Source of the DNA: Thermoplasmatota archaeon
GTDB lineage: Archaea; Thermoplasmatota; Thermoplasmata; UBA10834
Assembly (NCBI GenBank): GCA_963818745.1
Contig: CAWFTI010000001.1
Span: forward strand, 47,345 to 111,344
DNA length: 64,000 nucleotides
Reading direction: 5' to 3'
Shown: positions 14,969 to 28,712 of the stretch, in pieces
Layout: every line of letters starts with the position of its first letter
How positions within the stretch are numbered: position 1 is the first letter of the stretch
Notes under the pieces: model-generated
Told to the model about the DNA's origin: nothing
Seen by the model: only the letters and a program-made list of their open reading frames with translations
The model's database searches: none
Position numbers and translations under genes: made by a program

Positions 14969-15042
14969 TGGGGTAGATCGGATTTGAACCGATGACCTCA
15001 TGCTCCCAAAGCACGTATCATACCAAGCTAGACCACTACCCC
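14969..15042 (-). tRNA. tRNA-Pro (UGG), intronless, no encoded CCA
   Basis: GGGGTAG TG GTCTAGCTTGGTATGATA CGTGC TT TGG GA GCATG AGGTC ATCGG TTCAAAT CCGAT CTACCCC A; 7-bp acceptor stem, anticodon at 15008-15006. Confidence 0.95.
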
Positions 15043-26611: not shown

Positions 26612-27538
26612 GGTATCTTGGTCCCGCACTTCCTGCAGAAGGAGTCCTCGCCCCTGGGCTTCGTGCCGCAGGACGGGCACTTCCTCTCCTTCGGGACCTT
26701 CGTGCCGCACTTGGAGCAGAACACGTCGTCCAGGTCGAGCATCGAGCCGCACACGCGGCACTCGGGGGCACCCAGAGGGCCTCTCTCGGCCTCGGGCTCC
26801 TCGGTCTCCTGCTCCGGCATCTCCTCGATCCCTTCATCCCTGGCCTTGAGGGGTATGGTCTCCCTGGAGGCCTCCTCGCTCAGGCCCTTCCTGGCCCTGA
26901 GCGCGAGCGACAGGGCCTTGGAGTAGTTGCCAGCGTCGAACTCGTTCTGTGACTGCGCCACCAGGCTCTTCGGCACGGACACGTCCGTGCCCCTGTCCGA
27001 GGCCGCCGCGAGCTCCGACTTCGCGGTGCTCAGCTCGAACTTGGCGCTCAGGTAGTTGGGGCCGCTCTCCGAGGGCAGCTTCGTCCCCGAGTACGAGTCA
27101 CCTGAAGGCGGGGGCGGGACCCTCGGCGTCGACACTATGTTCTCCGCGACATCCTCGAGCCTGCGTCTGGCGTCATCATCCCCGCGCAGCGTGCGCGTGG
27201 CGACCGGAAGACGCTGCGGGCTTCCTGACCTTCGTGAGCTCGTCCTTCGCCTTGTCGCAGAGATCCGCGGTCCTGTCGTAGTTCCCGTCGCTCATCGCGT
27301 CCTTCGCCGGCTTCAGGATGCTCTGGGCAGAGCTGACGTCCACGCCCTGGCGCTGGAGGGCGTTCATGACGGAGCGAACCGTGAGGATCTGGTTGTACGC
27401 CTCGTCCCTGCGCATGCTGGCCACTCTGACCTCCTTGCTCTTGCCCTTCATCACCCTGAACTCAAAATACAGGACGATGAACATCAGCACCGCCAGGATG
27501 CTGATAAGCATGTACTTCTCGTTCTCTGTGAGAGCCAA
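26608..27538 (-). CDS. membrane-anchored protein with helical repeats and C-terminal double zinc ribbon (frameshift ~27180)
   Basis: N-terminal TM; two similar blocks (QGVDVSSAQS..MSDGNY / RGTDVSVPKS..FDAGNY); CRVCG..FCSKCG..CPSCG..FCRKCG. Confidence 0.75.
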
Positions 27539-27634
27539 GGAAGGCCAGCTCCAGCTCGATTAGCTATCTGTGTTCTTATAAACCCTTCCTCCAGAAAACC
27601 GACGCTGCAGAACGAAGGTGAGAAAATGAGTGGC

Positions 27635-27848
27635 TGACGGCTTTCCACAACCCTAGCGGGTTCAAACGATACGGTTCACCCTGTACCCGAAGGTACCTGG
27701 CTAGCGTATCTAGCCGCTAGGACCGAGACGCCTCAAGGGCGTTAGGCTTCCCGAGGGCTCGCGCACCTCAGTACCGCAGATAACGTAGGCGGGCTTAACT
27801 TCTGGGTTCGGAAAGGGACCAGGTGTAACCCCGCCACTATGGCCGTCA
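27635..27848 (-). rRNA. rrf: 5S ribosomal RNA, ~214 nt, with a ~98-nt internal insertion
   Basis: UGACGGCCAUAGUGGCGGGGUUACACCUGGUCCCUUUCCGAACCCAGAAGUUAAGCCCGCC...GUACUGAGGUGCGCGAGCCCUCGGGAA is canonical archaeal 5S. The helix-I partner GCCGUCA appears only ~100 nt later than normal (27641-27635). Confidence 0.95.
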
Positions 27849-27880
27849 AACCGCTCGAGTCCAGTCTAATAACGATGTCC

Positions 27881-27888
27881 TATATAAG
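27881..27888 (-). promoter_or_regulatory. TATA box of the 5S rRNA gene
   Basis: CTTATATA on the minus strand ~33 nt upstream of the 5S 5' end. Confidence 0.6.
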
Positions 27889-27974
27889 CGTTGTCCACCA
27901 GGTCACGAAGACTATGCCAGTAGTAGTAGGGCATTGTTTGATTACGCCCATCCGCCTTCCCGAAAACGCTTGGC

Positions 27975-28712
27975 ATGAGGAAGATCCTAGGCATCACATT
28001 CGACCTCTGGGACACATTGATCAAGGAGCTCCCGGGGAACTCCGAGAAGGTCGCGCGCATCCGGATCGACAGGATGTCCGACGTGCTGGACAGGGGAGGG
28101 CACGCGCACTCGCGCGAGGAGCTCGAGGAGGCGTACGACAAGCTCGGCATGTTCCTCGACTTCACATGGGCGAAGATGAGGGACATGCCCGTCAGGGACC
28201 ATGTGCTCTTCATGCTGAACTGCGTCGAGTGCAGGCTCGCGAGCAGGCTCGCGCCCGAGGACTTCGCGGCCATCGAGAAGATCTACGCCGACAGCATCCT
28301 GGAATCCCCGCCCGCGCTGCTCCCGAAGGTGAGGGAGACGCTCGCGGCCGTCAGGGAGAAGGGGTACAGGGTCGGCCTCATATCCAACACCGGCAAGACG
28401 CCCGGGTCCACCCTTAGGGTCGTCATGGAGGACCTGGGCGTGCTGCAGTACTTCGGCGTGACCACTTTCTCGAACGAGATACTCGTGAGGAAGCCGGCCG
28501 AGGGTGCGTTCAAGGTCACGCTCGAGTCGATGAAGCTCCTCCCCCGGGCGGCGGTCCACATAGGGGACGACCCCGAGAAGGACGTGGAGGCCGCGAGGAA
28601 CGCTGGCATGCACGCCATCCAGACCCTGACCACGGGCGCGAGGAGGGCGGATTCTGCGGACGGATACGTCACCGACCTCGACCAGGTGCTCGAGGCGATC
28701 GAGAGGCTCTAG
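27975..28712 (+). CDS. HAD-superfamily hydrolase
   Basis: ITFDLWDTL, LISNT, RKP, VHIGDD..KDV.AA..AGM. Confidence 0.9.
   Translation: MRKILGITFDLWDTLIKELPGNSEKVARIRIDRMSDVLDRGGHAHSREELEEAYDKLGMFLDFTWAKMRDMPVRDHVLFMLNCVECRLASRLAPEDFAAIEKIYADSILESPPALLPKVRETLAAVREKGYRVGLISNTGKTPGSTLRVVMEDLGVLQYFGVTTFSNEILVRKPAEGAFKVTLESMKLLPRAAVHIGDDPEKDVEAARNAGMHAIQTLTTGARRADSADGYVTDLDQVLEAIERL

Follow-up and report, generated by a model that had tools for sequence, protein, structure and literature searches.

How can a 5S ribosomal RNA (rRNA) of almost twice the usual length exist in an archaeon, and does the surplus belong to the molecule that works in the ribosome? This question is raised by a single gene in a stretch of 64,000 nucleotides (nt) of a Thermoplasmatota archaeon (assembly GCA_963818745.1, contig CAWFTI010000001.1, positions 47,345 to 111,344), here called the window. 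On its minus strand, at window positions 27632-27850, lies a 5S rRNA gene of ~219 nt in which ~98 nt are inserted into the 3' strand of helix V. From all evidence presented below, this is very probably the organism's working 5S rRNA with a constitutive expansion segment, and we file it as a new structural type at a known archaeal 5S site, outside the Halococcus type. The observation is far beyond chance, and 5S expansion in Thermoplasmata is apparently both unreported and unusually widespread. All coordinates refer to the window, all elements of the gene lie on the minus strand, and an RNA position is converted to its window coordinate by subtracting it from 27851.

The presence of the gene is clear from a match to the Rfam model RF00001 at 27731-27850 (80.5 bits, E 1.7e-15, gathering score 38), and with this the minus-strand 5S gene that had been proposed in an earlier note on this DNA, made from the letters alone, is established. 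The alignment is good up to GGGAAG, and the last 20 model positions are forced onto a hairpin of the insert, which produces a false 3' end. Hence the suspicion that standard annotation would truncate the gene proved right: the Rfam match ends inside the insert, and the score of 80.5 bits is lowered because the model cannot span it. The true 3' end is given by helix I, whose 3' strand GCCGUCAG (27634-27641, RNA 210-217) lies beyond the insert and pairs with the 5' strand UUGACGGC, just as had been supposed; RNA contigs spanning 27631-27845 agree with these limits. With helix I plus 1 nt on its 5' side and 2 nt on its 3' side as the limits, normal-length relatives measure 121-123 nt and the gene in question 219 nt. 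The net insert is therefore ~97 nt, in agreement with the ~98 nt first estimated. The two flanking signals named by the earlier note are present as well. A TATA box (TTATATA, 27881-27887) lies ~31-37 nt upstream of the RNA start and recurs at equal distance in relatives as TTATATA or TTAAATA. Directly 3' of the gene a T run (27623-27626) is the likely archaeal terminator, and positions 27520-27615 are free of RNA contig cover in the three RNA runs X4, X6 and X8.

To which structure do the additional nucleotides contribute? Fold models were compared on two alignments, A1 with 35 family sequences and A2 with all 100 distinct expanded 5S sequences collected in this work. The canonical 5' core (RNA 1-106, 27745-27850) covers the 5' strand of helix I, helices II and III, loop C, the 5' strand of helix V, loop E and helix IV, and it ends with two helix V pairs directly after loop E. 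Its helices are 96-100% paired (in the 100 sequences helix I 96.0%, II 96.1%, III 99.8% and IV 99.7%). Helix V is kept as two parts, one on either side of the insert. In the part adjoining loop E the pair 74-105 is GC in 78 of 100 sequences, UA in 12, CG in 6, UG in 2 and something else in 2. The junction-proximal part is formed by the 3' strand RNA 205-209 (27642-27646) with RNA 67-71 and is 85% paired; here the pair 69-207 occurs as UA in 51, AU in 14, GC in 10, CG in 2 and UG in 2 sequences, with 21 others. A longer basal helix of the insert, made from the invariant GG at RNA 205-206 together with C124/U123, was considered and dropped, as this GG pairs with C70/U71 of helix V. Since the columns concerned are invariant, the assignment to helix V is a choice, supported by the neighbouring covarying pair 69-207. 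At window position 27781 (RNA 70) the present sequence has A and 34 of the 35 family sequences have C, giving an A.G mismatch in junction-proximal helix V.

The expansion segment itself comprises RNA 107-204 (27647-27744), ~98 nt. Its short arm H1 is a hairpin of 5 base pairs (bp), ACGCC/GGCGU (RNA 109-123, 27728-27742), that is 99.4% paired in the 35 family sequences and 97.6% paired in the 100. The long arm begins with the basal helix P1 (5' strand RNA 126-137, 27714-27725; 3' strand RNA 192-203, 27648-27659), in which the family shows two-sided changes at 8 of 12 pairs. A model-fitted alignment (A4) was for P1 no better than MAFFT, so A2 was used. Upon P1 follows an asymmetric internal loop of conserved columns with CUA on the 5' side (RNA 138-140, 27711-27713) and GUUUGAAC on the 3' side (RNA 184-191, 27660-27667). 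Its consensus is CUA opposite GYUNNAAM; G141 and G184 are invariant in the 100 sequences, and U139, A140, U186, A189 and A190 are conserved to at least 90%. A kink-turn was considered for this loop and rejected by eye, the required G position being G, U or C across groups. The next helix, P2, has 6 bp between GAUACG (RNA 141-146, 27705-27710) and CGUAUC (RNA 178-183, 27668-27673), is 96.8% paired and is the sole helix that RNAalifold predicts from the insert-only alignment. The arm closes with the distal hairpin P3 (RNA 150-173, 27678-27701), which has a UUCG loop, covaries and contains a tandem A.G/G.A that is replaced by Watson-Crick pairs in some relatives. Between P2 and P3 a second loop (RNA 147-149/174-177, 27702-27704 and 27674-27677), CUA opposite GAAC, repeats letters of the first; other groups have GAG opposite UAAA or UAAG at this place.

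Covariation of the insert in related genomes, which the earlier note had put forward as a check, is found in the helices of both arms: over the 100 sequences 5 of 5 pairs of H1, 12 of 12 of P1 and 5 of 6 of P2 change on both sides. For the whole structure this holds for 46 of 69 pairs, and 91.2% of cells are paired compared with 76.6% in shuffles and 32-42% when partners are slid by 1-3 columns. The minimum free energy fold of the insert alone (-41.7 kcal/mol) gives the same unbranched arm with H1, P1, P2 and P3. Over shuffles the fold of the single sequence has only a modest advantage (z -2.27); the evidence for the fold is comparative. Judged from covariation, the four-way junction is located in helix V and the long arm is unbranched, because the loop of the supposed GGCUAG hairpin pairs with CGUAUC 32 nt downstream. 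This revises the first proposal in part. A four-way junction exists indeed, and it sits in helix V instead of inside the insert, where it had been drawn with three hairpins. Compensatory changes support the proposed hairpin ACGCC/GGCGU, the stem CCUAGC/GCUAGG and the hairpin GUACC-UUCG-GGUAC. Three other proposed helices had to be given up. The hairpin GGCUAG/CUAGCC is 67% paired in the 100 sequences and reaches 100% within the family only since its columns hardly vary (4 of 6 pairs never do), and GGGU.GAAC/GUUU.ACCC is 68% paired. The closing helix UCUGCG/UGUGGA is 71% paired; a change on both sides is seen in one of its six pairs, and 65 of the 100 sequences leave two of its pairs open. The core keeps helix V instead.

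Is this gene the copy in use? The window's genome (4 contigs, 1,569,675 bases) contains exactly one RF00001 match at 68.84% marker completeness, so that the search for a second, normal 5S copy, also advised in the earlier note, has returned the expanded gene only. Among 61 genomes (60 relatives and the window's genome) 56 have an RF00001 match, including 32 of the 36 in the window's own family; the four family genomes lacking it are 84, 65, 87 and 65% complete. The scores of family members (68-80 bits) stand apart from those of the normal-length 5S genes of other families (91-114 bits), and this family-wide gap is a first sign that the insert is common to the family. It could be argued that the expanded copy is a dead gene or a chimera of assembly and that the real 5S gene is missing from the bins; the genome is incomplete, and metagenome bins often miss rRNA genes. 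Against this stand 100 distinct sequences of the same architecture from many independent assemblies, with every helix kept by compensatory changes and a conserved promoter, and three single-contig genomes (G008, G010 and G011) that have one 5S match each, the expanded one, and no other. Together with the very high RNA depth reported below, these data leave a pseudogene or artefact extremely improbable and close to refuted. In one relative (G023) a second 5S match (L007) of bacterial-looking sequence was found on a contig of 557 bases, which is probably a contamination of the bin.

Whether the insert stays in the RNA can be judged from metatranscriptomes. Parts of the stretch occur in seventeen runs recorded as RNA (nine studies are represented among the 20 runs listed), and four of them from four studies (X1, X4, X6 and X8) were inspected, all as assembled contigs. 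In three studies the insert is covered continuously by contigs: X6 has an error-free contig at 27631-27836 and X8 one at 27638-27815, and error-free pieces from X4 tile 27638-27845 with word depths of 22,720, 24,432 and 5,214. In X4 the flanking genes have word depths of 96.6 and 13.7 and the spacers none, which makes the 5S 50 to 1000 times deeper. One X4 piece ends at 27845 directly against the sequencing adapter, i.e. a few bases short of the RNA 5' end, as expected. Positions 27520-27615 and 27856-28023 have no RNA cover, which is consistent with the ends of the gene and says nothing beyond that.

These data bear on a reading in which the ~98 nt are an intervening sequence that is removed after transcription, the remainder being either religated or held together as a two-piece 5S by helices I and V. 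Introns are possible in archaeal rRNA and transfer RNA (tRNA) genes, and a structured, covarying insert would suit a processing substrate equally well. The X4 contigs are fragmented and one of them stops at 27749, close to the insert's 5' border; contigs are also compatible with a minor or even a major processed form. On the other hand contigs of two further studies bridge this border with at least 68 nt on each side, the depth of the insert is not below that of the core, and no joint that skips the insert occurs in the four RNA runs, although contigs can miss rare forms. As in archaeal introns of the bulge-helix-bulge kind, additional structured RNA sits inside a stable archaeal RNA gene; unlike them, it shows neither the motif at its borders nor a spliced form in the RNA contigs. 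A crude, lax scan of the locus yielded 6 bulge-helix-bulge candidates compared with a shuffle mean of 3.43, none at the insert borders and none placed to restore a normal 5S; the earlier note had seen no clear motif of this kind either. Furthermore, the comparable insert of Halococcus is kept in the mature RNA according to the main text of Stepanov and Fox (2021, PMC7812874). We consider an intervening sequence very unlikely. The RNA contigs favour a mature RNA of ~220 nt with the insert retained, and of the two options left side by side at the outset they speak for the expansion segment rather than the excised RNA.

For the working 5S rRNA with its expansion segment the following course can be pictured. 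A solitary 5S gene would be transcribed from its own TATA promoter to the oligo-T stop, and the canonical core folds normally. Two pairs past loop E the ~98 nt branch off the 3' strand of helix V and turn this helix into a four-way junction with two arms, a 5-bp hairpin and an unbranched arm of ~80 nt, the latter ordered as P1, CUA/GYUNNAAM loop, 6-bp P2, a second purine-rich loop and the capped hairpin. The segment would remain in the mature RNA and, by analogy with the ribosome of Halococcus, should project into the solvent from the central protuberance. Our best guess is that a protein or another RNA part would dock at the conserved loop.

Several points weigh against this picture and are collected here. 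The two halves of P1 are only 80.6 and 89.9% paired in the 100-sequence alignment, a value that partly reflects alignment error. With 68.84% of its markers found, the genome may contain a second, normal 5S gene. The RNA evidence consists of contigs and not of reads, so that the precise termini, the proportion of full-length molecules and any infrequent processed form lie below its resolution, and contig depths sum over look-alike organisms. In the rRNA-depleted library X1 a contig of depth 28 extends beyond the gene into the spacer upstream, which may be DNA or read-through. Finally, the position suggested for the arm in the ribosome is based on the structure of another organism.

How far does the expanded 5S extend beyond this genome? 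From the 60 relatives 58 loci were recovered: an insert at this position is present in 41, the length is normal in 16, and one is the bacterial-looking sequence on the 557-base contig. A pattern scan in which each species was represented by one genome, and which required the core motif and, after a gap of 97-127 nt, the 3' strand of helix I, gave at least 118 stretches, at least 83 of which contain an expanded 5S by our own parse; the remaining ones are normal 5S genes of haloarchaea, Thermoplasmata or Poseidoniia with a chance match downstream, or cut pieces. Pooling and de-duplication led to the 100 distinct sequences used above, with a net insert of 95-113 nt (median 100.5). A covariance model of the insert alone, R1, was then applied to 151 genomes sampled across the class. 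(This survey and the tallies of EF-2 matches include G528, a genome of family f11 that has no insert match and on which none of the conclusions depends.) R1 matches 59 of the 151 genomes and 40 of the 107 high-quality ones, always once per genome. By family, the proportions of positive genomes are 15/15, 2/2, 9/10, 3/4, 15/17, 1/1, 4/4, 3/3, 4/4, 1/1 and 1/1, and zero in the remaining 18 families, so the insert is nearly an all-or-none character of families. One of these 18, f7, is negative by R1 (0/1), yet a divergent insert is visible by eye in its genome. Thus, 12 of the 29 sampled families contain carriers, 11 recognised by the model and one by eye. Within the class the segment is far from the rarity that had been expected of such inserts.

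The Thermoplasmata-like lineage suspected from the sequence is reflected in the names of the carriers. Their records are titled Thermoplasmata, Thermoplasmatota, Methanobacteriota or Euryarchaeota archaeon, some loosely Methanomassiliicoccales or Thermoplasmatales, and others Candidatus Sysuiplasma, Saliniplasma, Haladaptatiplasma or Halarchaeoplasma. All are metagenome-assembled genomes of uncultured organisms, which may explain why the expansion was overlooked and limits direct tests for now. In all carrier genomes standard tools put the 3' end of the 5S gene ~100 nt too early. Full-text searches of the literature gave no report of an expanded 5S in Thermoplasmata, with the reservation that further taxa may appear in the supplemental tables of Stepanov and Fox.

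That paper (2021, PMC7812874) provides the frame for comparison. In its sense a prokaryotic 5S expansion is an insertion of at least 13 nt into the conserved core with pairing kept, and the present segment has a net length of 95-113 nt, extensive internal pairing and intact core helices. The authors catalogued 89 expanded 5S rRNAs, drawing on annotated 5S genes above 129 nt from RefSeq genomes and, in addition, on Rfam, 5SrRNAdb and targeted searches. According to the main text the archaeal cases come from Halococcus, Halalkalicoccus, Halomarina and Halodesulfurarchaeum only and are all of one type, with 108 nt between core positions 104.1 and 105; this insert forms an asymmetric V of a short hairpin and a long unbranched arm. 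The terms Thermoplasm*, metagenom* and Euryarchaeota are absent from the main text. The Halococcus-type insert goes back to Luehrsen 1981 (as cited in PMC7812874), and cryo-electron microscopy of Halococcus revealed a four-way junction and a flexible insert (Tirumalai 2020, PMC7530397). So far, large archaeal 5S expansions were thus known from a few haloarchaeal genera only, with one site named in the main text as the sole archaeal insertion site.

The likeness between both segments is considerable. Each adds ~100 nt (108 in the published haloarchaeal type, 95-113 here) to the helix V 3' strand of an archaeal 5S, adjacent to loop E, and by nucleotide count its first hairpin follows directly upon core nucleotide 104.1; the adjacency to loop E had been pointed out in the earlier note. 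Each is reported or found as the sole 5S type in the cell and consists of a short hairpin followed by a long unbranched arm with internal loops, including a 6-bp helix between a 5' YA loop and a 3' GYU..AAC loop. There are also differences. The carriers described here belong to another phylum; loop E is separated from the junction by only two pairs of helix V, and unpaired linkers are formed by core positions 103 to 104.1. At its distal end the segment has a simple UUCG-capped hairpin, unlike the Halococcus type, and the spread is far wider, i.e. 12 of 29 sampled families of a class compared with 25 of 401 sampled genomes of one order. The latter number results from a pattern search in the halobacterial order with 26 matched genomes, of which 25 carry the Halococcus-type insert and one is a chance match. 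These 25 carriers exceed the 15 strains listed in 2021, and among them the first hairpin and the arm occur in at least four sequence variants. The bacterial 5S expansions described by Stepanov and Fox (Thermoanaerobacterales, Clostridiales, Halanaerobiales and Alteromonadales) are likewise self-folding modules in an intact core. They are mostly shorter than the present insert and often coexist with normal copies, in contrast with the one gene per genome found here.

Could both archaeal arms be one module that was moved between phyla, or among Thermoplasmata, by recombination of 5S genes? The identical site by nucleotide count, the common V plan and the G-initial 6-bp helix between a 5' YA loop and a 3' GYU..AAC loop speak for it. 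With filters off, R1 even aligns in register over the whole halobacterial insert, yet at 12.0 bits and E 0.82, compared with 12.1 bits for the negative control. With default filters there are 0 matches of R1 to the halobacterial insert, and nhmmer, run with profiles for each of five groups and for the whole set, likewise gives 0 matches at E up to 10. The likeness of the motifs was, moreover, noticed before it was tested. Homology with the halobacterial insert finds no support in these tests, the covariance-model score being not above controls and nhmmer giving 0 matches. The independence from Halococcus that had been supposed at first fits this absence of detectable similarity and is at the same time unproven.

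For the history within the class a tree of EF-2 (aEF-2, TIGR00490) was calculated from 55 genomes that represent all 29 sampled families, with three haloarchaeal outgroups. The state of the insert requires 6 changes on this tree, and 4 of the changes are forced by well-supported branches; the first-branching family is a carrier. A tree in which all carriers stand together is 106.9 log-likelihood units worse (p-AU 0.002). This rejection of one clade of carriers, along with the 6 changes, would suit lateral exchange; several losses fit the pattern equally well, and the history rests on one gene and a quick tree search. Taken together with the comparison of both arms, we regard a laterally exchanged common module as unlikely. 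A single origin of the Thermoplasmata insert is likely, since one model, R1, detects carriers in 11 of the 29 sampled families, and along with the patchy spread it implies several losses, lateral replacement of 5S genes or both. As a side observation, the EF-2 genes of family f8 (G045, G057, G469, G478, G496, G512, G519 and G526) have an open frame of ~1050 amino acids compared with ~735, and the family match begins only at position 20-32, which points to an extended N-terminus, an intein or fusion with an upstream frame.

A more far-reaching view sees in the arm an ancient, selectable ribosomal module that was present early in Thermoplasmata, was repeatedly lost or exchanged, has its origin or function in common with the Halococcus insert and docks a partner in the central protuberance by its conserved loop. 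Early presence is suggested by the arm occurring in the deepest EF-2 branch. As a whole we find this proposal unlikely. What can be stated for the expanded working 5S rRNA is that a second, unrelated-looking segment occupies the same archaeal site and is fixed in whole families of Thermoplasmata. As carriers are widespread in this class, a near-doubling of 5S rRNA is no oddity of halophiles. The result also provides a natural test of whether the insertion site is merely permissive or functionally favoured.

In its surroundings the 5S gene is solitary. Upstream lies a gene for a HAD-family hydrolase in the opposite direction and downstream follow small open reading frames; the only other Rfam RNA in the window is a tRNA gene (RF00005, 62 bits, 14969-15042, minus strand). 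The leader 27851-27856 and the trailer 27628-27633 can pair (GAGCGG with CCACUC) and would lengthen helix I by ~6 bp. This pairing varies on both sides in relatives, where GGAAUGG with CCAUUCC and GAGCAA with UUGCUC are found, and it may be a stem for processing or mean that helix I is longer in the mature RNA. Between TATA box and RNA start, at 27861-27880, a further block (GACATCGTTATTAGAC-like) is conserved throughout the family beyond the needs of a spacer.
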